A DNA stretch of 64,000 bases from a virus: IMG/VR virus record IMGVR_UViG_3300038386_000109; one strand, 5' to 3'. Under the pieces are notes generated by a model. That model was not told the origin of the DNA. It did not search any database and saw nothing but the letters and a program-made list of their open reading frames with translations. Positions 13,206 to 40,856 of the stretch are shown piece by piece; the first letter of the stretch is position 1; each line of letters opens with the position of its first letter. The translations under genes were made by a program, and so were the position numbers.

Positions 13206-14300
13206 TTAGATACCGACCATCGTCGCGACGGCCACCGGGTACTTGAAGACCGCGCCCCAGGTCCCGCCCGAAACTTTCTGCTTGAAGCTAGACATATCCG
13301 GCACGAGGGGATGCTGGCGCATCTTCTCGTTATAGGCGGCAAACCCGGTCTGCTGGCCCTGGATGGTCTTCGCGAACAGCATCAAGAATTCGCCGCCCGG
13401 ATGACCGTGCGGGTTCAGAGACGACTGCGCGCCGAACTCCGGCACCGTGACGATCGTGATGTTCGGGAAGTTTTTCTTCAGCAGGTCCTGGACGCTAACG
13501 CCAAACGAGTTGGTGATCGTCAGCGCGGTTTCGGCAAACGACGACATGACGAGCACCAGCGGGGTGTCGGTGTCGACGGCGCCAATCGTCTGCGCAACGA
13601 GCTGCGTATAGAGCGCCTGGATGTCGGCGTACACTTCGTTTGCGGTAGCCTGCGGAATACCACCGTATAGCCACGAGGTGTGCGTGGCGTTTCCGTAAGC
13701 CTTCAGGCCAGCCTGGATGGAAGCCTGCAGTCCTGGGTCGTTCAGGATGCCGTACGTCTGCATGCCGGCGACGCCGAACAGGTACGACAAATTCATAAAG
13801 CGATTCATGACGTCGGCCGCTGCCGCGTCCTGCTCCGCAACCCAGTTGATCTTTGCGAGCGCAGCGCGCGCCACCTGACGCTCGCCGTACTGCTTCACGG
13901 TCTGGAAGTAGTAGGCCTGGCGGGTTGTCCAACCTTCGTTGACCGACACGTTGCCATTGTTGTTCCAGTCGCCATAGCTGGAGACCTCGCCCGCGTGCTC
14001 GAGGATCGAGAAGATGGTGGTATCCATCGTCCAGTCGCCGCGCTTCTCTTCGCCGAGAATCTGAGCCGCCTTTGTGGGCGCCATCAGAATACGGATGACG
14101 TTCGGATCGATGAAGGTCGTGAACCACGCCGGTACGCCGTTGGTCGGTGGCGCGAACAGCTGCGGCTGCGCGTCCATGACCGGCTGATCATTGACCAAGC
14201 CCTCGGGCATGTAGGCCCTAACCTGCGGCAGCACGATGCCGAGCTGCTCTAAGTGCGCCCGGTCAGCGGCGAAGGACGCCTGCAATTCTTGGAAGTTCAT
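13206..14300 (-). CDS. Major capsid protein (DUF2184 family)
   Basis: 364 aa; KRGDW...GEVSSYGD...YLFGVAG...YGILNDP...FKQKVSGGTWGAVFKYP. Confidence 0.9.
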   Translation of the reverse strand: MNFQELQASFAADRAHLEQLGIVLPQVRAYMPEGLVNDQPVMDAQPQLFAPPTNGVPAWFTTFIDPNVIRILMAPTKAAQILGEEKRGDWTMDTTIFSILEHAGEVSSYGDWNNNGNVSVNEGWTTRQAYYFQTVKQYGERQVARAALAKINWVAEQDAAAADVMNRFMNLSYLFGVAGMQTYGILNDPGLQASIQAGLKAYGNATHTSWLYGGIPQATANEVYADIQALYTQLVAQTIGAVDTDTPLVLVMSSFAETALTITNSFGVSVQDLLKKNFPNITIVTVPEFGAQSSLNPHGHPGGEFLMLFAKTIQGQQTGFAAYNEKMRQHPLVPDMSSFKQKVSGGTWGAVFKYPVAVATMVGI

Positions 14301-14341: not shown

Positions 14342-15307
14342 TCAGCCAAGTGCCTGATCAGAAATTTTCACCAGTTCCCCCGGAGCGGCCGAACTAACGG
14401 CCCACCATTTCGTCTCGACACTGCCGCCCATGGTGAGCGTGGTCGAAGACACGACGGTGTTATTGTCGACGATGTACGTGCCGGTCCCACCCGTGCCCGT
14501 ACCAAACGCACGGACGCGCGTACCAGCTACGACGCCAGAGCCGGAAATCATGTCGCCTACGGTAAGTGCTCCAGAACCAACAGCAGAAACCGTCAGCACG
14601 CCGTAAGCCGCAGTGATGGTCGTAGCGGCGACCGTCTGCTCACCGATCGACAGAGCGTAAGTGCCGACGCCGCCCGTCGTGCCGGATAGTTGATCGGTGA
14701 TCTGCGTGTTGGCCGCGACACCGGTGCCGGAGAGCGTCGCACCAGGAACCAACGTGCCTGAGCCTACGGCGCTGACTGTCAACACGTTGTCGGCGATCGA
14801 ACCGGTAACAGAGGCAGAGCCTGCGGCGACCGAGCCCGTGACAGACGCGCCGCCTGCACCAGTTCCGCCGGGGACCCCGAAACTGACAGTTCCGTCAGCA
14901 TAGTTCGCGAAGGCCTTCATACCGACAAGCGCTTGCGCGGCGCCAGCATTCCTGACCCAGAAATCGCCCCTGCTCATCAAGGTGACTTCCTTGCCGGGCA
15001 GAATGCGCATCAGGTCATTGGGGATGGCGCCAGAACCGGGCGGCCAGCTGAGAATTGTGCCCTGCATGTCGCGATGCGCGAAGCCGGCGACAGGGCCGTA
15101 GCCGAAATTATTGGCAATCGCCGGAGCCTCGTCGGTGTCGACAACTGATGGGTCAACCCAGGCGAATCGGCCAACGACGAGACCACTGGAACCCGCAACG
15201 AGACCGCCGGGGCCGGCAACTACTGACGCCCACGGATTGGCGGAGCAAAAGTCGCCTTCAATGCCGGGAGCCGGACCGGACCGGAATGCAGTTTGGAACC
15301 CAACCAT
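14342..15307 (-). CDS. Head decoration/cement protein
   Basis: GFQT...[14 protein letters not shown]...[11 protein letters not shown]; duplicated LTVSAVGSG...G.GG.GTY modules; precedes capsid. Confidence 0.7.
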
Positions 15308-18040: not shown

Positions 18041-21000
18041 TTATCGCGCAATCGGCAGGGGGTAGATGGGGAAGTCACCAGACATAACCGCCGTGTGCCC
18101 ACCGAGGGTCATAGAGGCTGGCGAGCCGTTGGTAATGGACGCAATGGTGGTCGCAGTCGTACCTCCAGTGATCGGCCATTTATCAGCGTTGCTTGCGCCA
18201 GCCGCCGGGAAGCCCTGCATGGTGTCGAGCGGGTTGTAGTACGTTGCAGTATCGCCGCCATATCCGTCACCGCGAGAGATATTGGTAACAGATGCCGATC
18301 CTGACGTGAAAGTTCCGAACGACACTTGATTCGTGATGATCGGCCCGCAATGACTGCAATACCACAATGTACCAGCGGCTGCTAAGGCCGCCGTTGTCAT
18401 GTGGTTTGTGGTCGTCGCCCAAGTATTTATATTGACTTCCATATTATTCATCTGCGTGGCTATAATATCCCAATTTCCACCATCGGCAGTCACCGCCGTC
18501 ACAATAGCCATTGTTGCAGTTGCAAAATGAGTGATGAAATCACCAGGGATGATTTCCAGCACGTCCTGGGTCCCGCCAGACAGAGTCATCGTAATAGTGT
18601 CACCGCTGATCGCAGGAGCAACTACGGCGCTGCTCGCATCAAAAACATTGCCTCCATTCCGGTGCAGAATACGGAACTCTCCATTAGGAGCGCCCCCTGA
18701 GAAGGCCTCAAAGCGCTGGGTTGCTTGCGTCATTTGCTGACGCGAGGTTCGCCACTGCATACTCTCGTTAAGATATTGCGCAGAAAAGGAACTATCCGTT
18801 GGATTAACGAGATAGCGACCATTGGTGCTCCCTATCCAGCGAATCTTGGATTGAACGTTAACATACGGTGCAGTTGGATCATGTAGCGGACACATAATGC
18901 CGCCCGAATGGTTAAACGCCCGCTGGAACGCGGCGTTTCCATTAGAGCCGATCATCCGATCATAATGGCCCTGCCATTCATTTGTTTTAATAATCAAATT
19001 GCCCGTAGTAGCGCCGGTCGTCATTGCCGCCATGGGGATGATACGGCTACCGGTATTAAATGCACAATCATCCAGTGTAAGCGTGACTCCACCCGGTAGT
19101 TCAAAAAATGCAACTGGAATTGATCCATGCAGGGCTTCGGCGGAATCCCACTGGAGCCCCTTGATGGTGATGGAATTCGTCACCGAACCTGAACCGGTTC
19201 CGAAGGAGCCAACACGGACTCCAACTTCGTTGTAAATGCTTTCAAAGGTCATTCCCGCTAGAGCACTCGGATTAAAATCAAATATCTGATAGACAGTTGT
19301 GACCATTAAATTCGAGACCTTTCCACCAAACAAGCCACCCTGCTGACCAAAGTGCTGGTTAGATAGAACGGCCCAACACGTATTGACATTGCAGTAAGAG
19401 ACTTCAACACCACGAGACTGTGTGTTGACTATAGCTATTGGAATTACATTGTAGTTAAAGTTGCAGTCCCTGACCTTGATGAAGTCACCGTTACCGTCAC
19501 CATTTGGCGAGCCGCAGATGCCGATGATTCCGCCGTAGAACTGGCAACCCTTAATCGTCACGTCAGACGTAGCAAGCTTACTATATTGGGTAGAGATTCC
19601 GGTCCACGAAGGATAGGTGACGGTTGGATACGGATTGGGCGGAGCAGCACCCTTATAGGCATCAACCGTGATAAAGGCGAGAGGTGAGTAACGTGTCAGT
19701 CCGCCGGGACCAGTTGCAAGTGATGGGTCAAGCCACGAGTTGATATTGGCAGGAAGATTGCTCGGATTTCCTGAAGCAATAATATTTGTACCAATCCAGT
19801 TGAGATTTTTGCCGTAAAAGAAAATATTTTCAATGCGGTTCAGACGACCACCCTGAATGTTAATGCAGGGCCGATCTGTGTTCAAAGGCGCCCATGCAAC
19901 ACCAGCCAAATTGCCGTCGAAGGATGCGTTACAACGTCCTACGAGAGAAATGGTGCGATAAGAATCACCGTAACCAACGTGAATTACATCGCCAATCTTT
20001 GCCATGGCTGGACAAGCCGGGATGGAAACTTCTGGATAACCATTCTGCATAGCCCAGTCGAGGGCTGCCTGAACGATTGGCTGCTGATCCGTTCCACCTG
20101 CTCCATTTGGCTGGTACCCCCACTGACCAAGATCAACCGGGTATCGGTCATAGATCGGTTCCCAATAATTACCGGTGCCATTTGGATGCACTTCGCCGTA
20201 AATGTTCGTCGGCGTGGACGTGCCACGCGAATACCAAAGGCGCGAACCGGCTGAACCACCAGATACATTCTGGACCAACACCCAATTCATCGCGGAGAAG
20301 TCGGCGGTGCTTGCGGCAAACAGCGCCTTATTTGAAAAGACCATGATGTCGCCAGCAACGCCACCCGAGCCACCGGTGGGAGGCGTAGCCCACGTCAAAT
20401 CGCCGCGAAGGAAGGTCGAAGTGGAGGCGCCGCTATTGGAGACACCGCCAAACGCGCCAGAGCTGTTGACCTGAAGCTGACCGCTCGAGCCGCCGGGGCT
20501 TCCACCCCCGCCACCGCCTGCCGGGGTCGCCCACGTACCGTCGCCGCGCCAGAAAGTAGTAGAAGACGCGCCAGTCCCGCTATTCAAGTTGCCGACAGGC
20601 AAGTTGCCGGTTACGCCGGTCGCGAGTGGCAGCCCCGTAGCGTTTGTTAGCACTAGGGCTGACGGGGTCCCCAAGTTCGGCGTGGTCAACGTCGGCGATG
20701 TCGCCAGAACGGCGCTCCCCGACCCAGTGGTGGAAATTCCCTGAATGTGTGTCGAGTCCGTCCACGCCGCGATTTGACCCGCAGTAGGCGTTCCAAAATT
20801 AGCAACATTGCCGCCGCCTGCCGGGGTTGACCACACGCCGTCACCGCGAAGGAACGTGCTGCTGGATGGGGTACCTGTGGGCGCGAGGGTTGCGAGGGCA
20901 CCGAACACCACGCCGCTCGTTTTCGTGATCGTGAGCGCGCCGGTAGACGTGTTCAGCGTGCCGTCGCCGTTGATAGCAGGAACACCGCCGAACGATCCGC

Positions 21001-21181
21001 TGATATTGACCTGTAGCTGGCCGTTTGATCCGCCCGGCGTGCCGCTGCCGCCGCCGCTCGTAATCGCATTGGCGAGCGCGGTGTCCGCCGCATTGAGAGC
21101 TGCGATCAGCTCCGCCTTGGTGATGGGGCCCGCCGATAGATTCGCCGCAAGTGCGACTGCAATATCAGAAGCTAAAGTCAT
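18041..21181 (-). CDS. Tail fibre/tailspike with pectate-lyase-like beta-helix
   Basis: 1046 aa; N-terminal repeats (GQLQVN.SG.FGGV x2; STF.RGD..W.TP x3); D...QPIVQAALD and N/G/I-rich beta-helix-like body; lower GC in the body. Confidence 0.7.
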
Positions 21182-21641: not shown

Positions 21642-24569
21642 TCAACGGTTGGGCGGGAACCAGCGGGTTGTCCCTACTATCATAGGCCGAGCACCCCGTC
21701 CCTGATACTGCGAAATATCCATATAAAAATCTGGTCCAAAATCGGAGCCAAAATCTGGAGGACCATTTAGCGTTTGCGCCATCAGGATGGGCCGCACGCG
21801 AGATGCCCCCTGCAATTCCGGCCGAACCCAGCCAGTCGAAAATATCACTGGCCGCGCGACTGGGGTAGCGTACAATTCCGGCCGGTCTGGAGCTACGGCA
21901 AACAGAGTAGCGCTAGGACCAATCCGAAGATGTGGGGCACTGATCTGTGGGACAACAATGCCGGTCGAATAAATAATAGATGTCGCTATTAAACCTACAG
22001 GAATAACAGCGATGATCGAGCCGGCACTGAAAAGCACGCTGTCGCCGATCAGCCCTGGCGTGATGTACGCGACTAGCGGCGCTGCCTCATCGACTATTCC
22101 GAGACCTGTAAACTGCGCGGTGGTTATCTGACCGGCAATCCCGCCAGCGAGCTGAGCGACGGCCACCCCGGAGAGAACAACAGCCTCCATCGGCGCTACA
22201 GCGCCAGCGGTAAAACCCTCTGAGGCGGCCAAGGCCTTGGCTATCGTTCCAGTAAAGACTGAGAGATCACCCGCAGTCGCAGACGTTGCCGCACTAGGAT
22301 CGGAGACAGCGGCAGCCAACGCCGGAGCGCCGGCAGTAGCGGCCATACCGGCGCCGGAGATGATTATTGCGTCGGTTCCGGTGGTGGTTACCTGACCGGC
22401 TTGGTGCAAAATATCAGCACCAACAATGCCTAGCGAAACGGTTGGCCCAAGCAGCCCGGCTGTCTCAGCTACTCCAGCCCCCAGTAGCGCTTGGGTCAAG
22501 GTCGTGGCGAGCGCAGCCGCCGCATACACGCCCGAGACACCAGCGAACAACGGCTCGCCGGCTACTGCTAGCGCCCCGGCCAATTCGAATAGGTCGGCAC
22601 CAGAAATACCGAGGGAAACCACAGGTCCAGAAACTGACCCCGCCTGTTCGGAGACCGCTCCTCCATTGAGCGAGAGAGTAATCTGATCGGTCAGCAACCC
22701 GGCCGAATCACCAATTACGGCTGAAGCGAGTGTGTAAGCTAGAACAAAGCCGAATGAGCCGGCTTGTTCGACAACTGATGCCCCGTCGATCGATGGAACC
22801 GGGGCGGCGACAATCGTCCCGGCGGACCCTGCGACCACATCCCCCGACAATGTAAACGCAATCTGGTCTGTAATGGCGCCAGCAGAACCGGCGACCAACG
22901 CGCCAGTAACGACCGGGGCAACGGCGGCGACCACAGTACCAGCCGACCCGGCGACTACGCCGCTCGGCAAAGACAGACTAAGTGTCTCAGCGATCGAGCT
23001 AGCCGTCTCGGCGATTGAAATCCCAGAAATAGCGGGAACGTCAGCGGCAATCGCCGACCCCGCCGATCCGGTCATGATGGCGCTCGGCAGGGCGACGCCA
23101 AGCGCGATTGCAACAGCGCCGGCCGTCTCAGAAATCACGTCACCGGCGATGACTGGCTGCACGGGCGCGGTTAGCGCCCCCGTCACATAAGCGTCGGCCG
23201 CGCCCGTAATCGTCGGGCTAATCGTTATCGAAAGCACAGAAGTCGAGTCGGCAACTGTTGCCCCAGCAATCGCTGGAGCTGGTTGCGCGACGACGCTACC
23301 AGCGGCATCGGCGAGCAAAGCGGACGGCAGCGTATAGGCTATCGTGAAGCCAAACGCGCCAGCCGTGTCAGTTATTGAAGCTCCGGCAATAGAGGGAACA
23401 GCCGCCGCCCCGACAGCTCCGGCCGCATCAGCGACTAGGGCCGTCGCCAAGGTGAAGGAAGCCGTAAAGCTGAATATGCCAGCGACATCAGCAACGGTCG
23501 CACCAACGATTGTAGGTACCGCAGGTGCGGTTACTCCACCGGCTGTATAAGCGTCCGCTGCGCCTGCGAGGGTGGTCTTTACCGTTGGCCCCAGCGCAGA
23601 TGTCGCCTCTGCAACCAGAGCACTTGAAATACTTGGGTTAACAGCAGCAACGACAGTCCCCGCACCATACGACGAAGACGCGCCCGTCAAACTGACGGTT
23701 ACCGGTGTATTGTCGTCGATTGTTGAAACATCTGGCCGATTAAGTGCGGTCGGAGAGATGCTGTAAGTCGTGCCGCCCGTCAGCCCACTAAAGGTTTGGG
23801 TCGACGAGTCGTCGTAGGTGCAGGTCAGCGCGGTCGCCGCCGCCGCGAGGGTGAAGCTATCGGTGTCGCCGCTCTCGATCCGCAGGCCGAGCACACCGAA
23901 CGGCGATACAGAGCTGTGATCTATACGCTCGCCGAACTGAGGCTTCGATGTAGTCTTAACGTATGGGCACGTGGTCCTACTGAGAACAAGACCAACAGAA
24001 GCCTCTGAGAGGTAGAAACCCTTGACGCCGTCACCGGAACCAGAGTCGGCAACATAGCCGTACCAATTTCCACCACCAGAATTGTAAGGAATGCGAGCAA
24101 CGCAGCGCCACCATCCACTCCCCAAGGACGTGGACGACAGATTGTCAGCGCTACCTACTGCCGCAATCGCACCTGTGCTGGTATTGATAGTGAATCCTTG
24201 TCCAGCACCATCCTGAACCAAAAAGCTAGTAAACCCCGACCCTTTAATTGTTACTCCCAGAATAAAGTGATCGCTGCTGCGACCGGTCAGCGAATAGCCT
24301 TGGGCAATAGCATTGCCTGCGCCATTGGTACCGCCATTCGGGGGCACCCATAACGTCGCCTCTGTACCGTTGGGGGTGGTTGTCGAATTTTGAGTAGCGG
24401 TGCCCTGGTAACCCCAGTTACCCGAGCCAACTGCTTCACTGTCTTTGATAAAATTGTTGTCTGGATATTCAGTGGTCCCGGTTGCGTCCGTATATGTTGC
24501 CGGGGAAGACCTAGCATGGGCCCATGCAGTTGGGCGAAGTCCCGAACTTGCGTCGAGAATACGCGCCAT
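21642..24569 (-). CDS. Ala/Gly-rich repeat fibre protein with N-terminal spike/CBM-like domain
   Basis: 975 aa; ARSSPATYTD...NF....GWWRC N-terminal domain, then many imperfect ~19-20-aa A/G/V/S repeats. Confidence 0.6.
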   Translation of the reverse strand: MARILDASSGLRPTAWAHARSSPATYTDATGTTEYPDNNFIKDSEAVGSGNWGYQGTATQNSTTTPNGTEATLWVPPNGGTNGAGNAIAQGYSLTGRSSDHFILGVTIKGSGFTSFLVQDGAGQGFTINTSTGAIAAVGSADNLSSTSLGSGWWRCVARIPYNSGGGNWYGYVADSGSGDGVKGFYLSEASVGLVLSRTTCPYVKTTSKPQFGERIDHSSVSPFGVLGLRIESGDTDSFTLAAAATALTCTYDDSSTQTFSGLTGGTTYSISPTALNRPDVSTIDDNTPVTVSLTGASSSYGAGTVVAAVNPSISSALVAEATSALGPTVKTTLAGAADAYTAGGVTAPAVPTIVGATVADVAGIFSFTASFTLATALVADAAGAVGAAAVPSIAGASITDTAGAFGFTIAYTLPSALLADAAGSVVAQPAPAIAGATVADSTSVLSITISPTITGAADAYVTGALTAPVQPVIAGDVISETAGAVAIALGVALPSAIMTGSAGSAIAADVPAISGISIAETASSIAETLSLSLPSGVVAGSAGTVVAAVAPVVTGALVAGSAGAITDQIAFTLSGDVVAGSAGTIVAAPVPSIDGASVVEQAGSFGFVLAYTLASAVIGDSAGLLTDQITLSLNGGAVSEQAGSVSGPVVSLGISGADLFELAGALAVAGEPLFAGVSGVYAAAALATTLTQALLGAGVAETAGLLGPTVSLGIVGADILHQAGQVTTTGTDAIIISGAGMAATAGAPALAAAVSDPSAATSATAGDLSVFTGTIAKALAASEGFTAGAVAPMEAVVLSGVAVAQLAGGIAGQITTAQFTGLGIVDEAAPLVAYITPGLIGDSVLFSAGSIIAVIPVGLIATSIIYSTGIVVPQISAPHLRIGPSATLFAVAPDRPELYATPVARPVIFSTGWVRPELQGASRVRPILMAQTLNGPPDFGSDFGPDFYMDISQYQGRGARPMIVGTTRWFPPNR

Positions 24570-30658: not shown

Positions 30659-31494
30659 CTACAGCCGCTTAACGATCCACATAACCACCGCGATCACGAC
30701 CACGATCGCGGTGAGCGCAAGGACATTTCCCGGCCAGCCCGGTGTAGCCATCTCAAAATGCCCTCGTCCATTTTCCCCCGATTGGTCGGCAGGTCCATCG
30801 GGATTTGTCGGGATCACCCGAAACCCCAAAAAAACCAGCCCAGAATTAAACCGACCGACGCAATAACGAGGGTGCCGCAAAGGAATATTGTAGCACCCTT
30901 ACTCATTCTTCGAAGCGGTAGGTCCACGTTCCCCCCGAATCTTTCACGATTTGGTCGCGCCTGACATACCCCTGTCCCACAGCAACGGCCGCATAAATCC
31001 CCCAGCCCTTCACAGTGACACGCCAGAGACCAAGACTAGTCTTCTCGCCCTTGTAGAGATGCACCAGCTCGCCGGTGCGGATGTAGCGGTGCAGCGCAAG
31101 GTCGACGAGGCCTCGGATCATTCTGACTTCCGCCGCTTCATCGCGTACTCGTAGGAGCTGACAGCGATGGCCGCGTACCTCTTTGTCAGCTGCTTCGCGG
31201 TCTCTATCGCGACATGGTGAGGCACCTGCGAATCGGAAGCGCGAGCTAGAATCTTGCCCCTACGATCAACCTCGCAGACATAGAAGAGGCGCGGTTCGCG
31301 GCTCACTTCGACTTCTTTTCCTGCTGCCGGCCGGTGACCGGCTTCTGGATGGCATTCTTAGGCATGCTGCCCAACACCTCGCTGACGATGGCGTCGCGCT
31401 GCATCTTCTGGCTTTCGTTCAGCTCGCGGTGGATCGGATCACCATCAAAATGCTCAGGTCCCAGCTCGCCGAGTTTGTGTTTATAGGGTTTCAT
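30659..31494 (-). CDS. Four small hypothetical ORFs (30659-30880, 30903-31121, 31118-31306, 31303-31494)
   Basis: Mostly overlapping start/stop codons; downstream of the portal gene and the second mini-array. Confidence 0.45.
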
Positions 31495-31551: not shown

Positions 31552-34500
31552 CTAAAAATGGCGATCATTTCGGCCCTCCGCAACCTTTTTTGGCGAGCCT
31601 CGCTCGCCGTTATTGTCATACAGTGTCCAGCGCTTCAGTCGCGGGATGATGTCATCGAAATTCTTCTCGTTACCGTACGAGCCAAGGATGTATTCTGGCG
31701 GCACAAACCGGCCCGTCCCCTTGTCTGATACCCCGCCTTTGGCAAACCGGCCCATAGCGCGGTCCGCAGCGATTTCCGGCGTGCTGTGCATGTAAATCCC
31801 GTGTACGTCGTGCGTATCCTGAAACTGATCGATGCGCCGCAGCGCGCTGGTGCCCGACTTCATGGTCTGGTCGAAGGCGACGTTCAGACCCTTCTGCTTG
31901 GCGATCTGCGCAGCCATGTCGGCGATGTGCGAGCTTTCCTCGTGCACTAGGCCAGCATTCCAGCCCTCGTACTCCGGGAGCTGCTGCTTGAACGCATCCG
32001 AATCGACCACGATCGTATTCTTGCGCGACACGGGGCCGTCGGCGCCGGTGATGAACGACTTGCCGGAGCCGCCGCGGCCGCCGAGGACGGTCATCGTCGG
32101 CCGCTGCCCTGGCGCTGGCGTCGCGCCCTGCACCGCCTCAGGCGTGAACAGCTTCCGCAGGATTTCCTTGTGCAGTTGGGCGCGCTCCGGCGTGTACGTG
32201 CCGTCGTCGAGGGTGTGGCCACCGTCGTTGACGTGCGCGTTGGTCGGCACAGCCTGCTTCATCATCTCGCGGATTTTCGCGATTTGATCCGTCGTCCCGT
32301 ACTTTCCATTTATCCGCTTGGCGGCGTCGTCGATCTGCCCCGGGTGAGGCGCGCCGCCGTTCCTCGCTAGGAGGTCTTGGGCGGGTCCTTTTTCCCAGAC
32401 GCGGGAACTGACGTCTGGCGTCCACCCGTACTTTTGGGCGAACTGGTCTTCGACGGCTGCGATTTTGGGGCCGAGGTTGGCGAGTAGCGTGTCGGCGCTT
32501 CGTTCCACATCGGGTCCAGCCGATCGGATGGCTTGTAAATAATCCTCGGCATGGGGGGACTTGCTCCAATCGTTCGCCAGATAATCGCCCACGTAGTGAG
32601 CGCGCTGGGCCTCAATTTGCTCTGGAAGGCTGTCGGATTCAAGACCTTCGATCGCCGAATGCACAGCCGCGCCGAACTGATCGTTGGGCATCGATCCGGT
32701 ATTCAAGACGCGCCAGCCCTGCTGGGTCGGGACGAGCGCGTACTCCAGTCCGCTAACGGCGCCGAGCGCCTGATCGATGGCTGCCGCCTCGGCCTCTGAT
32801 GGGCTGCGACCCATCCTGAAGTCGAGCATATTGCTGTCCTTCGGATCGATGTCGACGAACCGCGTCGAGGCGTGCGGATCGAGGTGCTCGCTAATCAGCT
32901 TGGGCTGTTTGTAACCCCTGCCGATATCGGAGAGCAGGCCATTCTGTTCGGCGTACTGGCGCGCCGCCGTACGACTGAGGACCTGACCCTTGTCGTTCTT
33001 GAAAACGTAGTTCGCATCGTTCTGCGCGCCGCTCGCCAGAAAAGCCTTCTGCTCCTCCGGTCCGAGGGCCGCCAGTGCGTCTTTGTGGGTGACCCCGTGT
33101 CCGGTGTCCGTCGGGAACACAACGCCCTTGGCGGTCTTCAGACCGGGAATGAGATAGGCATGGGACGGCGGGGGTTCAGGCCGGTGCCATGCGGCAGCGT
33201 CTTGACGCAGCAGGATGCCCCGAATCGCCTCGCTGGCGTTGATCTTCGCCTTATCATCGTCGCCGAGCCGACCAAGATTAACCTGTGTCTGGGCGCCTGG
33301 ATTGACGCGACCTTGGAACACGCCGGCCGATGAGAACGTCGGGCCCGTGCGCAAGCCGAGGGTCTGCGCGATGACGTCGTGACCCTTCTCGTCGCTGAGG
33401 ACTTTCTCAATCGCCTGCTGGTACTCGCGGCGCTGCTCGAGCGGAGCGTCGTGGAACTGCGGCATGTTCCGCGTGGTCTTGCCGGGCGCACTCTCCCACG
33501 AGAGCTGGGCGGGCTGCCGCTCACGCGGGTCGGTCGGCTGATACTCGACGTGCGGGTGGTGCAGCGCCGGAGCCTGCGCGACCTTGCGGGCTACTCCTGG
33601 TCCGCTGGTGAATCGCCCGTGTTGCTCGCGGGGGTGCTGCTGCTCGTTCCACTGCTGGAAGAGGTCGAGGGCGAGCGGAACTGTTCCGGCAATTCCTCCT
33701 CGTCCTCCGCCGTCGGCTGATAATCCGGGTCGCCCCAGTTCACCGCGATGTAATTCGTGCGCGTCAGCGGTATGCCGTACGTCACCATGAACTCCACCAC
33801 TGGGTCGGTGCCATGAAGGTGGGCTAATTCCTCGGCTGAGAATGCGGCGCTGGGCTTCGTCTCGGGTGATTTTTCCACTGTCGGCGTCATCCCAGTGCCC
33901 CTTTATTTCCTTGCGAAGGTCGTCGCCTTTGTCCTCGGCTTTGAATAGACCGCGCTGCGCTTCCCAGGTGACCGACTGCATCTCACGTGGCAGGACGCCA
34001 CGCTCCTGAGCTGCGCGCCGGTATCCCTCTGCATATAATCCGTAGAGGCCTTTCGAGCCAGTGGCAGCATCCTTCGCGCCGGTGAGGCCGAGACCATCCT
34101 TAACCTCGGGATCGGCGCCACTCCACGGCATCAGCGCAGCCGCGCCAATAGCATGGGTGTCGATAGTCACGTCCCCACGCTTCGACTGCGGCGCGATGAT
34201 GTTGTTGTAGAAATTCCTAACCTTGTGATTTCCGCCAAGGTTCTTGGAAATATTCTCGGGCGACGGATCGTCCACGATCGACACCGCCTTGGCAATCTCG
34301 CGGAACGACTTCCACGCGGCGCGCGAATCGCGGCCGTCCTTGTTCTTGACCGAGCCGAGGACAGCACCCTCAGGCGACATTTCCGGGAACGAGCGGGTGT
34401 TTTCGGTCTCGTCCCAGAACCTGATCCAGTGTGCGCGCTCAAGCGGCTTCTGAATATCGGCGAGGGTTTTGCCCTCGAAACCCTGCATCATCTTGCGGAC

Positions 34501-37500
34501 ACCGGCGGCAACCTCGGGCGTTTTTTCCTCGAGCTTCTGCGCGTAGGCCTCGGCCCACTCCTTCATCCGCTGCGTGGTCTTCTTGTCGCTATGATTTTTG
34601 ATCGTGTCGATGACGCGGTGCGCCAGGCTGATGTTCTGGAACCAGTCATTCTGCGGCGACAACGCGGCTATTACGCCGGCAGCGACACGCGGCTCAATGC
34701 CGAAGTGCTGCGCCCAATCCTCGGCCATCTTGTGCGCGCCGTCGTACCAGAGCTTCGATCGACCCTTGATCTCGTCGGGGACTGAATCCCACAACGCCAG
34801 CACGTTCGATTTGACGTGGTTGACGAAATATTCTGAGGCCTCGTCGGCTTTCATATTTTTCGTCGCGCCGAGCCCGGGGATTTTCTTGATCAGCTCGGCG
34901 TTCTTTTCGAATGCGGCTTTCGAGGCCTTACTGGACTCGAGACCAACCTGAAAATCGGCACTCCTATGCGGGTCGACCGCGGTCTGACCTTTCTTCGGTT
35001 TCGCGGTCGGCACCCGGGTGGAGATGCGCTCGTCGTCAGGATTGGCCTCAGGCTGCGATTCCGGCCCGCTGGGCGGCTTTTTGCCTTCGGCCGGGTCCCA
35101 ATGGCCCGACGTGAATTGACCGCCCTGGTGAGACCCCTTCGGGGCCCGTTGCTCGCTCGGGCTTAGGCGGTCTTCAGCGATCACCTTGTCGTCCTGCTTC
35201 AGGACCTTGATGTCCTTCGGATCGAAGACGACGTAATTCAGCTCGCCGCGCAGCTGCGGGTCGCGGTAGACGTAGCCGGCTAGACCCCGACGCCTCAGCT
35301 CTTCGTCGGTCCACTTCGCGTCCTGCGCCTTGGTCCACGGCACGAAGTCGGTCCGCGGGCGCATCACACGCACCGTGTACAGATGGCCAGTGATATGCGT
35401 CTGCGCAGCGTTCAGCCGATGGATAGGCTTGCCGCTGAGCTGCAGCCGGTCGGTCAGCTCGTCGAGGTACCGGCGCGCTACGACCGGCGAGGTGGCGAGG
35501 TAGATGCCGGTCCCGTAGTGGGCGCGCGCGGTCCCGGTCCCGATGTGGCTGCTATCGAAATGATCGAAGTCGAAAGGGCTGCCGTGATACGCGACAAAGC
35601 CCTCCGCGGGGTCGGCATCCCACGCACCGCAGTGTGCCTCGCGTTCCTCGAGTATCTCGCGGACTGTCTCGATGTCATTCTCGCGCAGTGCGCGCCGCAG
35701 ACGCTCGCTCTCAATTTTGGTGAGCTTGCCTAGATCGAACGGAGGTGCTTCGTCCCGCGCTGAAGCGAGGCGGAGGTTCGGGGGCGCACGGACTGGAGAG
35801 CTGGCCGTGCCACCCCCGCCCCCACCGCCAGCGGCAGGACCGGACGTGGACGACGGGTCTTCGCCATCCGGCCCAGGCGGTTCCGGTACTTCCTGATTAG
35901 CCTTCGCGTTCGCGACGTCTTCCTCGGTGATCGTCTTGAACAGGCCAGCCTCGACCAATTCGCCCAAAGCTTGCGATGCGTCAATAAGGCCATCGGTGTA
36001 CGCAGTGAGGATCGGCGTCGCCATCTTCGTCGCGTTCTCAGACAGCTGCTCGTCCGTCATCTCAGGCTCGTCGTCGAGGTCGAGCCCGGCGTACGGCATC
36101 CCCTTGTCGCTCGCGACTTTCTTGCGCACCTCGAGCGGCGACAGTACGTTCGCGTCGATGTAGGTCTTATCAGTGCTGGCATCGGCCTGCCGCACCTGCG
36201 CATCCTCCATCGCGGACTGCGTCCACAGCGGCTCGAAGTCGAAGCCAATGTCGGGATCGATATCGCCGAACAGACTGAGCTGGGTAAAGTTAATGATGGT
36301 GGTCAGTTGCGGACGAAAGAAAACCTCCTGCACGGCATGAATCCAATCGTAGAACACCCTGATCTCGCCCTCGGACGAGGCGTTCAAGCCGTGCGGCGAC
36401 AGGCCGAAAAACTTCACCAGCGGGATGCCGGTGACGGCACTCATGTGCTCCTGCGACTGCGCTTGCAGCTCGTCGAGCCCACTCAGCGGCGTAGTGACAT
36501 TGAAAAACTCTTCATCGACATCGAGGACGAACGTGCCTTGGTTCTGCTTGAAGTTGGTGAACAGCTGCAGCCGGCGGATCATATCGTCGGCGCTAATGCC
36601 GCTGTTCAGCGCCTCGGCCATCTTGGTCTTGAAGCCAGTGGTGCTAAAGCTCTGAACGAGCCGGCCGACCGACTCACGAATGCGGTCCCAGTTGTTGACG
36701 TAGGTCTCGGCTAGCTGGGTCAGCGGAATACCGCCGAACGAGTAGCTCGGCTTCAGCAAGTCGGAGACGGGTCGACTGATGAACGTCAGTAGACGAGACG
36801 CATGAATGCGCTTATTCTGTACATACCATTGCGTCGGTACGTAGTAGTCAGGTGCCAGGGGGTCGGTGGCGTTGTACAAGGCGGGCGAACACCAGACAGG
36901 CTCGACGATACGAAGCGCATTGAACCGACCGCGGCCCACCTTTGCCCGGCTGATGTCATCGCTGCCTGATCCGATAGGCGTCGCCAGCTCAACAGAATCG
37001 TTAGTGTCGGCCCCCGTATCAATGTAGATATGGCCGCGCCCGAAGTAGCCGTCATGTTCCGCTACCTTTCGGAAGAGATCGCGCACACCCAGGCGAAGCA
37101 TCTCCGCCTCGATTTTCTTGACCTTATCGGTTTTATCGTCCTCGCTCGCGACCGTTATTTTAATCCACTTCCGCGTCATCTCCGTCGCGATGATCTCGAC
37201 CATGCGGCGGTACTCAGCCTTCTGCGACAAGTTCGCGAGCGCCGGGAAGCCGATGAAGCGCATGGCGTGCAGCAGCGTGCTGCCCATGGCAGCCTCGATC
37301 GAATGCCACGCCCACTCACTGATATCGTTGCCGAACAAGGACAGGCTCTCGTCCTGCACCAAGCCGCCCTTGTGACCGACGACTGGCGGGTGAAGAGCCT
37401 CGATCTTGAATGGGTTGACAGCCTTGCTTGGGTCGATCGACGAGGACGCGAGCATCGACTGGAATGCCCCGGCGTCGACCTTCCTGGTGCGCCTAGGTGT

Positions 37501-37527
37501 CCGCTCGTTCAGATCGGTGACGGTCAT
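31552..37527 (-). CDS. Polyvalent portal protein: DUF1073 portal + ART-like + glycosylase-like + zeta-toxin domains
   Basis: N-terminal ~550 aa DUF1073-like (EMTRKWI, IHASRLL, SGIPLVKFFGLSPHGLNASSEGE); YHGSPFDFDHF..G.GIYL..YVVFDP; VIAALSPQNDW..KVRNFY..VTIDTHA; VLGGRGGSGKS..VDSDAFK..VHEES. Confidence 0.8.
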   Translation of the reverse strand: MTVTDLNERTPRRTRKVDAGAFQSMLASSSIDPSKAVNPFKIEALHPPVVGHKGGLVQDESLSLFGNDISEWAWHSIEAAMGSTLLHAMRFIGFPALANLSQKAEYRRMVEIIATEMTRKWIKITVASEDDKTDKVKKIEAEMLRLGVRDLFRKVAEHDGYFGRGHIYIDTGADTNDSVELATPIGSGSDDISRAKVGRGRFNALRIVEPVWCSPALYNATDPLAPDYYVPTQWYVQNKRIHASRLLTFISRPVSDLLKPSYSFGGIPLTQLAETYVNNWDRIRESVGRLVQSFSTTGFKTKMAEALNSGISADDMIRRLQLFTNFKQNQGTFVLDVDEEFFNVTTPLSGLDELQAQSQEHMSAVTGIPLVKFFGLSPHGLNASSEGEIRVFYDWIHAVQEVFFRPQLTTIINFTQLSLFGDIDPDIGFDFEPLWTQSAMEDAQVRQADASTDKTYIDANVLSPLEVRKKVASDKGMPYAGLDLDDEPEMTDEQLSENATKMATPILTAYTDGLIDASQALGELVEAGLFKTITEEDVANAKANQEVPEPPGPDGEDPSSTSGPAAGGGGGGGTASSPVRAPPNLRLASARDEAPPFDLGKLTKIESERLRRALRENDIETVREILEEREAHCGAWDADPAEGFVAYHGSPFDFDHFDSSHIGTGTARAHYGTGIYLATSPVVARRYLDELTDRLQLSGKPIHRLNAAQTHITGHLYTVRVMRPRTDFVPWTKAQDAKWTDEELRRRGLAGYVYRDPQLRGELNYVVFDPKDIKVLKQDDKVIAEDRLSPSEQRAPKGSHQGGQFTSGHWDPAEGKKPPSGPESQPEANPDDERISTRVPTAKPKKGQTAVDPHRSADFQVGLESSKASKAAFEKNAELIKKIPGLGATKNMKADEASEYFVNHVKSNVLALWDSVPDEIKGRSKLWYDGAHKMAEDWAQHFGIEPRVAAGVIAALSPQNDWFQNISLAHRVIDTIKNHSDKKTTQRMKEWAEAYAQKLEEKTPEVAAGVRKMMQGFEGKTLADIQKPLERAHWIRFWDETENTRSFPEMSPEGAVLGSVKNKDGRDSRAAWKSFREIAKAVSIVDDPSPENISKNLGGNHKVRNFYNNIIAPQSKRGDVTIDTHAIGAAALMPWSGADPEVKDGLGLTGAKDAATGSKGLYGLYAEGYRRAAQERGVLPREMQSVTWEAQRGLFKAEDKGDDLRKEIKGHWDDADSGKITRDEAQRRILSRGISPPSWHRPSGGVHGDVRHTADAHELHRGELGRPGLSADGGGRGGIAGTVPLALDLFQQWNEQQHPREQHGRFTSGPGVARKVAQAPALHHPHVEYQPTDPRERQPAQLSWESAPGKTTRNMPQFHDAPLEQRREYQQAIEKVLSDEKGHDVIAQTLGLRTGPTFSSAGVFQGRVNPGAQTQVNLGRLGDDDKAKINASEAIRGILLRQDAAAWHRPEPPPSHAYLIPGLKTAKGVVFPTDTGHGVTHKDALAALGPEEQKAFLASGAQNDANYVFKNDKGQVLSRTAARQYAEQNGLLSDIGRGYKQPKLISEHLDPHASTRFVDIDPKDSNMLDFRMGRSPSEAEAAAIDQALGAVSGLEYALVPTQQGWRVLNTGSMPNDQFGAAVHSAIEGLESDSLPEQIEAQRAHYVGDYLANDWSKSPHAEDYLQAIRSAGPDVERSADTLLANLGPKIAAVEDQFAQKYGWTPDVSSRVWEKGPAQDLLARNGGAPHPGQIDDAAKRINGKYGTTDQIAKIREMMKQAVPTNAHVNDGGHTLDDGTYTPERAQLHKEILRKLFTPEAVQGATPAPGQRPTMTVLGGRGGSGKSFITGADGPVSRKNTIVVDSDAFKQQLPEYEGWNAGLVHEESSHIADMAAQIAKQKGLNVAFDQTMKSGTSALRRIDQFQDTHDVHGIYMHSTPEIAADRAMGRFAKGGVSDKGTGRFVPPEYILGSYGNEKNFDDIIPRLKRWTLYDNNGERGSPKKVAEGRNDRHF
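33591..33890 (-). CDS. Putative nested same-strand alternate-frame small protein
   Basis: GTDPVVEFMVTYGIPLTRTNYIAVNWGDPDYQPTAEDEEELPEQFR reads like a natural protein while the host frame here is low-complexity filler. Confidence 0.45.
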   Translation of the reverse strand: MTPTVEKSPETKPSAAFSAEELAHLHGTDPVVEFMVTYGIPLTRTNYIAVNWGDPDYQPTAEDEEELPEQFRSPSTSSSSGTSSSTPASNTGDSPADQE

Positions 37528-38122: not shown

Positions 38123-38797
38123 TTATTTCCTCTGCACTGCTGGCTTCAGATATTTCTTTGTCGGGACTGGCAGACGCAGCTTATCCTTGATGCTGACCAG
38201 CGTGGCGACGGCCGCCTTGTTGTAGCGATAGGTCTGGAGCAGCGCCGGAATTTGCAGTGGGTTGGTTACGACCGAGCCTAAGATCGCCGACATATTCGGG
38301 CTGCCGTCACTATTCAGCGGGATCGTCGCGGCCGGCGGCAGCGTGAAGTCGTATGGGTCGGCAACAGCGCGGATCACGATAAACGGCAGTTTATGATCGG
38401 CCGCGATCTGGCCGACGATATGCGACTCCATGTCGACGACGCTGCTGCAGTAGACCTGCGCCATGTACTTCTTGGCCTCAGGCGTGGTCACCTCGACCAT
38501 CGCGCCGAGAACGCGCCACGGATAAAGGCCACCGCCCATGGTCCGAGACCACTCGACATCGCAGACAAACACCTCCTTGTCGGACTGCCGGATGACCTCT
38601 CGCGCAATAACCAGCTCACCTGGCCGCGCGCCCTCCGCCAGGGCACCGCACACACCAAAGCTGATCAGACCTGATAGGTCAGGCTCCCTCGCCAGCGCCG
38701 CGCGGATAGCCGCAGCATCGCCCTCGACCGTTGCGTCGCCGATGCTCGTGGCGATATTGCTCTCGTACGGCATGCCAGAAACGACAACGACGGTCAT
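38123..38797 (-). CDS. Nucleoside phosphorylase, HpnG-like / MTA-SAH nucleosidase family
   Basis: LISFGVCGAL...PGELVI...VVDMESH..GQIAA...PFIVIRAVADP..FTLP. Confidence 0.8.
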   Translation of the reverse strand: MTVVVVSGMPYESNIATSIGDATVEGDAAAIRAALAREPDLSGLISFGVCGALAEGARPGELVIAREVIRQSDKEVFVCDVEWSRTMGGGLYPWRVLGAMVEVTTPEAKKYMAQVYCSSVVDMESHIVGQIAADHKLPFIVIRAVADPYDFTLPPAATIPLNSDGSPNMSAILGSVVTNPLQIPALLQTYRYNKAAVATLVSIKDKLRLPVPTKKYLKPAVQRK

Positions 38798-39551: not shown

Positions 39552-40856
39552 TTATCTTTTCTGCTGAGCATAGGCTAGCAGACTATCCGGCACCTTGAAA
39601 TAGCCCACCCCTCCGCGGATCAGGTCGGAGAGCGCATACCGGCACGAATCGATGCCGTGGTCATGCATCGACACCACTACCGGCAGGATGCGATTAGTTC
39701 GCGCTTCCTTCTTGTACGAGTATAGTCGAAATTCCTGGGCGATGTTTGGGCAGCGCGGATGCACGACGATCCGCTTGAACTGCTTCATGTAGGCGATGCC
39801 GTCCTCGACGCTGCCCTTCCACTTCTCTGCGGCGGTAGCGCGTGGAAAACCGTGCCGCTTCATGTAGGCGATCGTCTCGGGGCGAGCGTTATCGCACATG
39901 ATCGGCCACTCGGCCGTGTACGGCACGTTCGCCTTCCAGAGCGCCGGCAGGTCGTCCATCTCGACGTGGTAGCCGTAGGCCTCGTGATCGATGAACAGCA
40001 CGTCCTCGTGGATGAAGCAGCGGATCAGGACGCTCGGGTCCTCGGCGAACCCCCAGTCGGCGCCATAGTAGAACCTGGCATCCTCTGGCGTGACAAAATC
40101 GTCGACCGTCACGCGATTGCGGAAAATGACCGCCTCGCTGAGCTTGCGGACGTGACCGTTCCAAATCCAGTCGTACGCATCGGGATCGATGCGCAGCATG
40201 TGCCGGCGCTGACGGTCGAGGCCGGCAGGGAACCACGGGTTATCTTTCCAGGTGACGTGCTTATGCATTGTCCCCGGCGGCGGATGCTTGATCCACATCT
40301 CGTAGGTCGGGTCTTCCTCGCTGTCGGGGTTGAACGTCACCCAGAGCTGGCTGCCCTCGACGCGATCAAGGGTTGGCATCAACACCTGCCAGCTGTCACC
40401 GGAAACGACATGCGCCTCCTCAACCCAACATCGATCGATGCCTTCGGCGGAGCGAACCGCCTGCGGGTCTTTCTTGAGACCCTTGAACATAAATTCTGAG
40501 CCGGTGTGCGGACACCGAATTTCGTCCCGCTTGATGTCGTAATATTTTTCCAGATTCAGCCGATATATTGCGTCGACGAGCAGCTTGCGGACCGAATCCC
40601 GCATGGTCGACTGGAACTCACGAGTACAGAGGTACCGGTGACCCTCCTGGCACGCCTCAATGACGAAGTGGGTTGCTACACTGCGCGACTTGGCGCCGCC
40701 GCGGCCGCCCTCGAGCACGTTGTACGGATGCCGGCCAAGGAACGGCTCGAAGTACGGCGGCAGCGCCAGTTCGACCTTCTGCCTGACAATATGGCTCTCC
40801 GCCTGCGGCCGCTCCTCGTCGAGAAGAGACAAATCACATGCTCCCGATCGGCCCAA
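39552..40856 (-). CDS. Terminase large subunit (PBSX family)
   Basis: EGGRGGAKS Walker A, WVEEA Walker B, TFNP, GADWGFAEDP, HDHGIDSCRYA. Confidence 0.92.
   Translation of the reverse strand: MGRSGACDLSLLDEERPQAESHIVRQKVELALPPYFEPFLGRHPYNVLEGGRGGAKSRSVATHFVIEACQEGHRYLCTREFQSTMRDSVRKLLVDAIYRLNLEKYYDIKRDEIRCPHTGSEFMFKGLKKDPQAVRSAEGIDRCWVEEAHVVSGDSWQVLMPTLDRVEGSQLWVTFNPDSEEDPTYEMWIKHPPPGTMHKHVTWKDNPWFPAGLDRQRRHMLRIDPDAYDWIWNGHVRKLSEAVIFRNRVTVDDFVTPEDARFYYGADWGFAEDPSVLIRCFIHEDVLFIDHEAYGYHVEMDDLPALWKANVPYTAEWPIMCDNARPETIAYMKRHGFPRATAAEKWKGSVEDGIAYMKQFKRIVVHPRCPNIAQEFRLYSYKKEARTNRILPVVVSMHDHGIDSCRYALSDLIRGGVGYFKVPDSLLAYAQQKR

Follow-up and report, generated by a model that had tools for sequence, protein, structure and literature searches.

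Polyvalent proteins were defined by Iyer et al. in 2017 (PMC5512222), who described portal proteins fused to PBECR, 2H and InPase domains (BcepF1.124) and zeta domains fused to MuF, and ARTs and Nudix domains fused to portals were reported in 2022 (Iyer et al., PMC9503650). Here we analyzed a stretch of 64,000 nucleotides from the IMG/VR virus record IMGVR_UViG_3300038386_000109 (the window), in which one open reading frame (ORF) of 1991 amino acids (aa) encodes a portal domain followed by four further modules. An initial annotation of this DNA had taken such effectors to be attached usually to MuF or to large injected proteins. This premise was too narrow, as portal fusions had been reported in 2017 and are common in the portal family found here.

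The ORF shares with the Iyer-type polyvalent proteins several effector domains, ART and zeta cargo and attachment to a head component. Polyvalent proteins are recognized by two or more effector-type domains in one polypeptide of a phage or conjugative element, in a virion or late-gene context, and here four modules follow the portal among head genes. The published portal fusions ('simplest architectures', PMC5512222) differ from this ORF, which has four modules on the portal, no MPTase and an overprinted partner gene, and in which two modules (DUF7178 and the fourth module described below) are without a published function. The portals of E217 and Pa193 (gp19, 8fvh and 9b41, 765 aa) belong to the same family and come from myophages whose sheath, hub and baseplate genes are related to those found here. 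Their extension, unseen over residues 529-765, has ~240 residues and no assigned enzyme, whereas the one described here has ~1450 residues with four folded modules. The cassette of ART-PolyVal and DUF7178 domains was also found together with LPD22 in an ORF of phage zth2-2 (OL791268.1), which is 34% identical over residues 644-1241. The zth2-2 ORF, however, is a separate one of at least 1391 aa that neighbors a nozzle-like gene, in a genome resembling those of podophages, has no portal fusion and keeps the canonical ART Glu. The 1991-aa ORF thus stands at the long end of the known portal-effector class, and adds the classical ART and DUF7178 cassette to a portal anchor. In the reading that we favor, and consider probable, the protein is a portal whose C-terminal polyvalent cargo array of ~1450 residues is carried in the head for the next infection. 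The ORF and its modules are as follows.

31552..37527, minus strand: whole portal-polyvalent ORF, 1991 aa with an ATG start, 218.9 kDa; conserved over its full length in the homologues P0003 and P0004.
35893..37260, minus strand: portal domain with crown and barrel helices, residues 90-545 (Pfam, PHROG 146 portal and solved homologues).
35608..35892, minus strand: Gly/Pro-rich linker and conserved helical segment, residues 546-640; without a tag of the HPR type described below.
35203..35595, minus strand: ART-PolyVal-like domain, residues 645-775 (sub-threshold Pfam match, local jackhmmer search and alignment).
33808..35031, minus strand: DUF7178 module of ~410 residues, residues 833-1240 (16-sequence alignment, AlphaFold2, VIA and hhalign).
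32353..33555, minus strand: module without Pfam annotation, residues 1325-1725; an alpha/beta domain of ~290 aa with an insert of ~105 aa (residues 1455-1560).
31555..32310, minus strand: Zeta-toxin-type P-loop kinase, residues 1740-1991, with Walker A GGRGGSGKS (K1823) and VVDSD (D1844).

Translation of 31552..37527 on the minus strand gave a single frame free of stops throughout, and Pfam placed four domains in it: Phage_portal_3, ART-PolyVal, DUF7178 (E 1e-29) and Zeta_toxin. The extension covers residues 546-1991 (158 kDa per subunit) and is ordered as ART-PolyVal-like domain, DUF7178 module, the ~290-aa module without Pfam annotation and the Zeta-type kinase. The initial annotation had described one uninterrupted ORF with portal, ART-like, glycosylase-like and zeta regions; the translation and the Pfam results bore this out, and all of its coordinate ranges convert correctly to residues of the ORF. 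Two elements go beyond it, namely the fourth module (residues 1325-1725) and a second gene in the +1 frame within the ORF.

The architecture was the same in P0003 (2042 aa), which is 52% identical to the ORF at 100% coverage. The P0003 gene was unbroken on at least 24 contigs, which came from different JGI and Logan samples, and there it follows the terminase gene directly. In P0004 (1807 aa) most of the fourth module is absent and the other parts are kept. A long ORF of this kind might be an artefact (an assembly chimera, a missed stop or a frameshift) or a decaying fusion with a non-functional extension, and two observations point that way: the ART domain is degenerate, and two related contigs of the P0004 type (L006 and L007, from JGI samples 3300072492 and 3300072490) have the gene broken up into two or three ORFs. 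However, the breaks in L006 and L007 are single-base frame changes (+/-1) across which tblastn continued seamlessly at 95-99% identity, and one of them falls at residue 155, within the portal domain. The breaks are sequencing errors or dead copies. With at least 24 intact contigs at 52% identity and invariant catalytic-type residues, an artefact or decay is strongly disfavored and to us very improbable, while a genuine and conserved portal-cargo fusion is strongly supported by the sequence comparison.

Natural gene fission at domain borders was also considered for the split relatives, and was rejected for the +/-1 frameshifts and the break inside the portal domain. Public gene calls list the L006 and L007 pieces as separate proteins, the Zeta end for example as a 'predicted ABC-type ATPase'; these calls result from the +/-1 frameshifts in the two assemblies.

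The portal assignment was the strongest of the domain matches. Phage_portal_3 (PF06381, the former DUF1073; TIGR01555) matched residues 96-454 with E 8e-87 and 291.7 bits against a cut-off of 33.8, and the match spanned profile positions 3-356 of 357. Solved homologues were the E217 gp19 portal (8fvh, E 5e-34), 9b41 (765 aa) and the portals of XM1 (7kln) and Pam3 (8hds). The large terminase gene (TerL) is 2 kb upstream of the portal ORF here and directly adjacent in relatives. In the E217 and Pa193 portals the C-terminal barrel projects into the head and residues 529-765 are without density (PMC10329688, PMC11456595). By homology with these structures, it is strongly supported that residues ~546-1991 begin where the portal has its inner tip, inside the capsid. 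Since the extension would leave the portal at its capsid-facing end, up to twelve copies of the four modules would lie in the head around the DNA channel. Twelve full-length subunits amount by computation to about 1.9 MDa of cargo per virion, which, roughly estimated, would fill a few percent of the space in a head holding ~70-80 kb. The initial annotation had the cargo tethered to the portal, and the single ORF supports covalent attachment at the portal C-terminus.

Long extensions are frequent in this portal family. At least 243 clusters of relatives (981-2800 aa) have one, with cargo that includes ADPrib_exo_Tox, ART, NUDIX, DdrB-ParB, Zeta, Topo I and His_Phos domains; DUF7178 was present in 4 of 120 clusters among the long-portal matches listed. 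Together with the 2017 and 2022 reports, these clusters mark the portal-cargo arrangement as a known and common one. A portal of the same family in Xanthobacter sp. V0B-10 (P0223, NCBI, 1221 aa) is annotated only as an 'anti-CBASS Acb1 family protein', presumably because it is a portal-cargo fusion and took its name from the cargo domain.

Two of the modules are preceded by a short tag.

35107..35154, minus strand: tag copy 1, EQRAPKGSHQGGQFTS, residues 792-807; degenerate (APK for HPR); precedes DUF7178.
33604..33651, minus strand: tag copy 2, WNEQQHPREQHGRFTS, residues 1293-1308; canonical; precedes the fourth module.

We defined the tag as [FW]-x-E-x-x-H-P-R-x(3-6)-G-x-F. In this strict form it occurred 146 times in 92 of 122 long portals of the family, against 0.1 expected by shuffling. 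No tag was found before residue 500 in the 122 long portals, and the median position of the first one was 623. In non-portal proteins, too, the fourth module is preceded by tags, and copy 1 is kept as EARAPKG..GGQW in P0003 and P0004. No Tyr-Ala cut site was seen ahead of either tag in the 1991-aa protein. The two short motifs that the initial annotation saw between modules are both present, and the tag statistics establish them as module delimiters. Our literature search found no publication describing the tag. The HPR-type tags ahead of the two modules could be junction signals for processing, packaging or both.

The DUF7178 module, a domain that recurs in many giant polyvalent proteins, was characterized by structure prediction. 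The AlphaFold model, built from a 16-sequence alignment (A2), had a predicted local distance difference test score (pLDDT) of 92. Comparison with VIA, which is independent of Foldseek, returned HhH-GPD (HhH, helix-hairpin-helix) enzymes or QNG1 in all of the top 20 positions (Z 9.2-5.7), with Tm1821 Ogg at 9.2, QNG1 at 8.7, AGOG at 8.1 and endonuclease III at 6.2, and with further matches to MagIII, MutY, OGG1 and ROS1 down to 5.7. Foldseek gave weak AGOG matches, none of them at E<=0.001 against the PDB. No HhH-GPD match was obtained in Pfam and no PDB match by sequence or profile search.

DSSP assigned a helix at 265-272, a GGN hairpin and a helix at 276-286 in model numbering. In the ORF the HhH hairpin is G1098-G1099-N1100, after which come a loop containing Pro and Gly and an Asp; G1098-G1099-N1100, K1102, P1113 and D1123-T-H1125 are invariant in the 16 sequences. 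An hhalign comparison with E. coli Nth (from NC_000913) placed K1102 on K120 and D1123-T-H on D138-T-H. This alignment covers this segment only and has an E-value of 0.18, which is insignificant alone, and it was used for residue correspondence only. K120 and D138 are the catalytic pair of Nth (endonuclease III).

The fold of DUF7178 is thus shared with HhH-GPD glycosylases (3n0u Tm1821 Ogg, 1xqp Pa-AGOG and 2abk endonuclease III) and with the queuosine hydrolase QNG1/DUF2419 (7ugk), as are the helix-hairpin-helix, the Gly/Pro-rich loop and the Asp, with K1102 and D1123 aligned to Nth. However, the module is about twice the size of the solved glycosylases, has no significant sequence match to them and is embedded in a portal, that is, a virion protein. 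At the level of fold and motif the results support a glycosylase- or lyase-like domain of HhH-GPD fold. The 'glycosylase-like' label that this region had received is therefore backed by the VIA fold matches and by the motif residues aligned with hhalign. No paper mentioning DUF7178 was found in our literature search.

A second gene was found in the +1 frame behind this module.

33591..33890, minus strand: overprinted +1-frame gene P0198, 99 aa, isoelectric point about 4.2; candidate inhibitor or partner of DUF7178.

The nested ORF begins at DUF7178's last helix and crosses a poorly conserved linker rich in G, H and R. Homologues of the nested protein, nested or separate, were present in 8 of the 10 DUF7178 lineages examined. 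They lie at the same place in the P0003-type, P0004-type, P0012 and P0022 genes; in P0019, whose DUF7178 is C-terminal, the homologue overlaps the 3' end of the gene, and in P0016 and P0013 it is a separate small gene directly downstream. No homologue was seen in P0024 or in zth2-2, where the region is cut by the end of the record. A Shine-Dalgarno-like AAAGGGG is located 7 nt upstream of the nested ATG, and the site is conserved: three lineages have AAAGGGG or AAAGGA at this distance. The nested proteins are acidic (isoelectric points of 4.2-4.6), in contrast to the basic DUF7178 (9.1). A word-index search with the nested protein gave no matches, as expected if gene callers skip nested genes. 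Other alternate-frame ORFs on the same strand were tried as nested genes and rejected, since they were conserved only where the DNA is conserved and several had stops in relatives.

Prediction of the complex between DUF7178 and the nested protein gave a score of 0.88, while the best of three controls reached 0.29. In the benchmark of this score, 58 of 80 solved complexes attained the mark, as did 2 of 110 mismatched pairs, a guide that is rough here because own alignments were used. At least 96% of contacts were shared between prediction runs, and the partner had a pLDDT of at least 77. The predicted interface includes the invariant SPQ motif (A2 residues 133-134) and the HhH hairpin (A2 residue 275). 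The model supports an inhibitor or immunity-like partner of DUF7178, and the protein might instead be a chaperone or assembly factor. As an inhibitor, the acidic protein would bind across the conserved groove of the basic DUF7178, at the SPQ motif and the HhH hairpin, and would keep the enzyme inactive in the producer cell as an immunity protein or a DNA-mimic inhibitor does.

Acidic inhibitors of DNA glycosylases of the Ugi type are known, as are phage genes overprinted on others, for example Rz1 within Rz. The nested protein resembles Ugi in being a small acidic protein predicted to cover the face with which a basic domain of glycosylase fold would bind DNA, but it has no sequence or fold relation to Ugi. 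Like Rz1 in Rz, the nested gene is written in the second frame of a larger gene. A literature search found no paper pairing 'polyvalent protein' with 'overprint'. If the overprinted partner is an inhibitor, a compact toxin-immunity pair would be contained within a structural gene, with the warning that gene callers miss such partners.

These results allow a bolder proposal, which we make tentatively and which may well fail. The portal ORF could hide a toxin-immunity-like pair in which the acidic overprint neutralizes a portal-borne enzyme of DNA-glycosylase or lyase type until the virion is built, and the HPR-type tags could signal release or loading in a general cargo system, as yet undescribed, in which hundreds of phage lineages carry swappable enzymes into the next host on the inner end of the portal.

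The ART-like module was recovered at residues 644-775 by a jackhmmer search that started from the ART-PolyVal domain of zth2-2, a bona fide member of the family. Its Pfam score for ART-PolyVal (PF18760) was 24.5 bits, under the cut-off of 31.2, and a PDB sequence search gave nothing usable. The His-Tyr-Glu triad of ARTs is incomplete: the His of the YHG motif (H648) and the Tyr of the GxGxY motif (Y676) are kept, and the position of the Glu is taken by N764. In the alignment, 'KEIVVFD' of zth2-2, with the catalytic Glu on the last strand, corresponds to 'LNYVVFD' here. The Asn was also present in P0003, P0004 and three further relatives. On these residues the domain appears to be an H-Y-N variant, for which classical transferase activity is doubtful.

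The fourth module was widespread. A search of the full library with residues 1310-1780 returned 607 representative clusters at E<=1e-3, and domain mapping resolved a single domain of ~290 aa (residues 1330-1452 and 1560-1720) with an insert that is present in this protein and its close kin. The domain co-occurs with MuF, Zeta, NUDIX and DUF7178 and is also found in small stand-alone phage proteins; the module itself had no Pfam match. The AlphaFold2 model (pLDDT 92.4) shows an alpha/beta fold whose halves are ferredoxin-like. A PDB sequence search gave nothing usable, Foldseek against the PDB gave no match at E<=0.001, and VIA returned generic ferredoxin-like or RND porter-like matches only (best Z 8.3). 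Matches in BFVD were uncharacterized large phage proteins, some of them labeled polyvalent. As the PDB and VIA matches were generic, no function was assigned. In the domain-wise structure check that had been suggested for this ORF, AlphaFold2 and VIA back a glycosylase-like fold for DUF7178 and give only generic PDB matches for the fourth module.

The Zeta_toxin match (PF06414) covered residues 1804-1953 with E 6.5e-21 and 75.1 bits against a cut-off of 22.3. In the PDB the domain matched zeta (1gvn, E 1.5e-5), PezT and AvrRxo1, and alignment to 1gvn placed K1823 on K46 and D1844 on D67. Both residues are invariant in three homologues, and the FKQQxP motif is conserved. The domain therefore has in common with Zeta, PezT and AvrRxo1 (1gvn, 2p5t and 4z8q) the family, the Walker A Lys and the catalytic Asp. 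In contrast to Zeta/PezT systems, the kinase is fused to a structural protein and no antitoxin was recognized: no family of the epsilon or PezA type was seen in the ORFs neighboring the Zeta domain. From its sequence, the substrate could be UDP-GlcNAc, NAD or something else. A small conserved gene follows the Zeta end of the ORF.

31303..31494, minus strand: conserved gene of 63 aa, immediately downstream of where Zeta ends; homologues at L001 16341-16529 and L006 8950-9138.

Homologues of the 63-aa protein were found in P0003- and P0004-type phages (E 5e-16 and 6e-11), and it could be a candidate partner or antitoxin of the Zeta kinase.

The domains might instead act mainly in the late producer cell, within unassembled portal protein, where Zeta could for instance weaken the wall for lysis or a module could counter defences, with packaging incidental. 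Kinases of the Zeta and PezT kind inhibit the synthesis of peptidoglycan (PMC5512222). The portal is a late gene whose product would be made in excess, and apart from SLT domains in tail genes no endolysin was recognized among the scanned ORFs of the window. However, the inward-facing end of the portal is recurrently fused to many unrelated cargo types and bears a junction tag, which argues for selection on head loading, and the co-encoded predicted binder of DUF7178 suggests suppression in the producer cell. We regard action mainly in the producer cell as quite unlikely. In the favored reading the modules would be late-made effectors that enter the head with the portal to which they belong and serve in the next infection, as other polyvalent proteins packaged in the head do.

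How the cargo could leave the head is less apparent. The initial annotation had proposed release by a DUF2213 protease, and the results did not bear this out. Neither DUF2213 (PF09979) nor another protease family was present in the 67 window ORFs of at least 100 aa, which represent 64 kb of a genome of ~78 kb. A zincin-like MPTase for self-processing is frequent, though not universal, among polyvalent proteins. Pfam showed no peptidase family in the portal ORF, and no HExxH (zincin) motif was found in the 1991-aa protein (P0001), P0003 or P0004. Beside the major capsid gene, on the minus strand at 14342-15307, lies the gene for a decoration protein of the XM1 gp53 type and not a protease; this gene is probably what had been taken for the protease. 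T4-type capsid-targeted internal proteins (Alt, IPs) are released by a prohead protease that the head module encodes. With no protease found in the 64 kb of the window, the covalently tethered cargo has no visible route out of the head. Release of the cargo and its injection with the DNA are thus proposed by analogy and are not read from this sequence, in view of the missing protease and zincin motif and of a capsid neighbor that is a decoration protein. The decoration protein has in addition a C-terminal extension of ~150 aa that matches tail-fiber-like PHROGs.

The cargo might instead stay at the portal and act in cis on phage DNA passing during packaging or exit, or serve as an inner core that organizes the DNA. 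This would agree with the covalent tether and with the lack of a protease or autoprocessing motif among those sought. The structure papers on PB1-type phages name no head protease (PMC10329688, PMC11456595), and the extension, with its basic DNA-glycosylase-like module, lies at the DNA channel. However, ART, DUF7178, fourth-module and Zeta domains are found also in non-portal polyvalent proteins, MuF-fused proteins and small stand-alone proteins, so free effectors fit better. An inhibitor-like partner, moreover, suggests an activity that needs restraint. The usual targets of ARTs and of kinases of the Zeta type are small molecules or host proteins, which also speaks against action in cis. We consider a permanently tethered cargo unlikely, and prefer its use as effectors in the next infection.

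Several results weigh against this preferred reading or its parts. No prohead protease or DUF2213 was seen in the window ORFs, and no zincin motif in the protein. The ART-PolyVal score is below its cut-off, and with Asn at the Glu position the ART-like domain may be inactive or do other chemistry. The assignment of DUF7178 to HhH-GPD draws on middling Z-scores (best 9.2, for a helical fold) and an hhalign E-value of 0.18, with no PDB sequence match. Codon-position differences in the nested frame were 33/25/33, and since the sequences are saturated this test cannot separate selection on the two overlapping frames. The portal/ART junction is here without the tag that most relatives have there.

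Effectors packaged in the head act ahead of any phage transcription, which makes them prime candidates for roles in counter-defence and in taking over the host; experimental studies exist for very few of them. The protein described here shows how far the portal itself can be a carrier, with four modules and 158 kDa per subunit. It also offers several handles: a glycosylase-fold family (DUF7178) with a predicted binder, a widespread module without a Pfam family and the junction tag.

The protein of the portal ORF was also found on an ENA contig of 77,985 bp, which sets the genome at ~78 kb, about 14 kb beyond the window. The large terminase gene is at 39552-40856 and the major head protein gene at 13206-14300. 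A DUF3383 sheath, a neck terminator, an E217 gp41-like hub and a KPP10 ORF10-like protein were recognized among the tail and neck genes, and from these head and tail genes the structural module is PB1/E217-like. The 1991-aa ORF is the only portal gene in the window of this ~78-kb tailed phage.

Between the portal and capsid genes, two minus-strand ORFs at 18041-21181 (1046 aa) and 21642-24569 (975 aa) had no Pfam or PHROG match; P0003-type loci have large ORFs without a Pfam match (1082 or 1022 aa) at a similar position. A PNP_UDP_1 nucleoside-phosphorylase-like gene (38123-38797, minus strand) is located between the terminase and the portal, where P0003-type loci have no gene. Pfam matches among 37 window ORFs included GmrSD_N (E 6e-4) and ribosome modulation factor (RMF, E 7e-7); it would be unusual for a phage to carry RMF.

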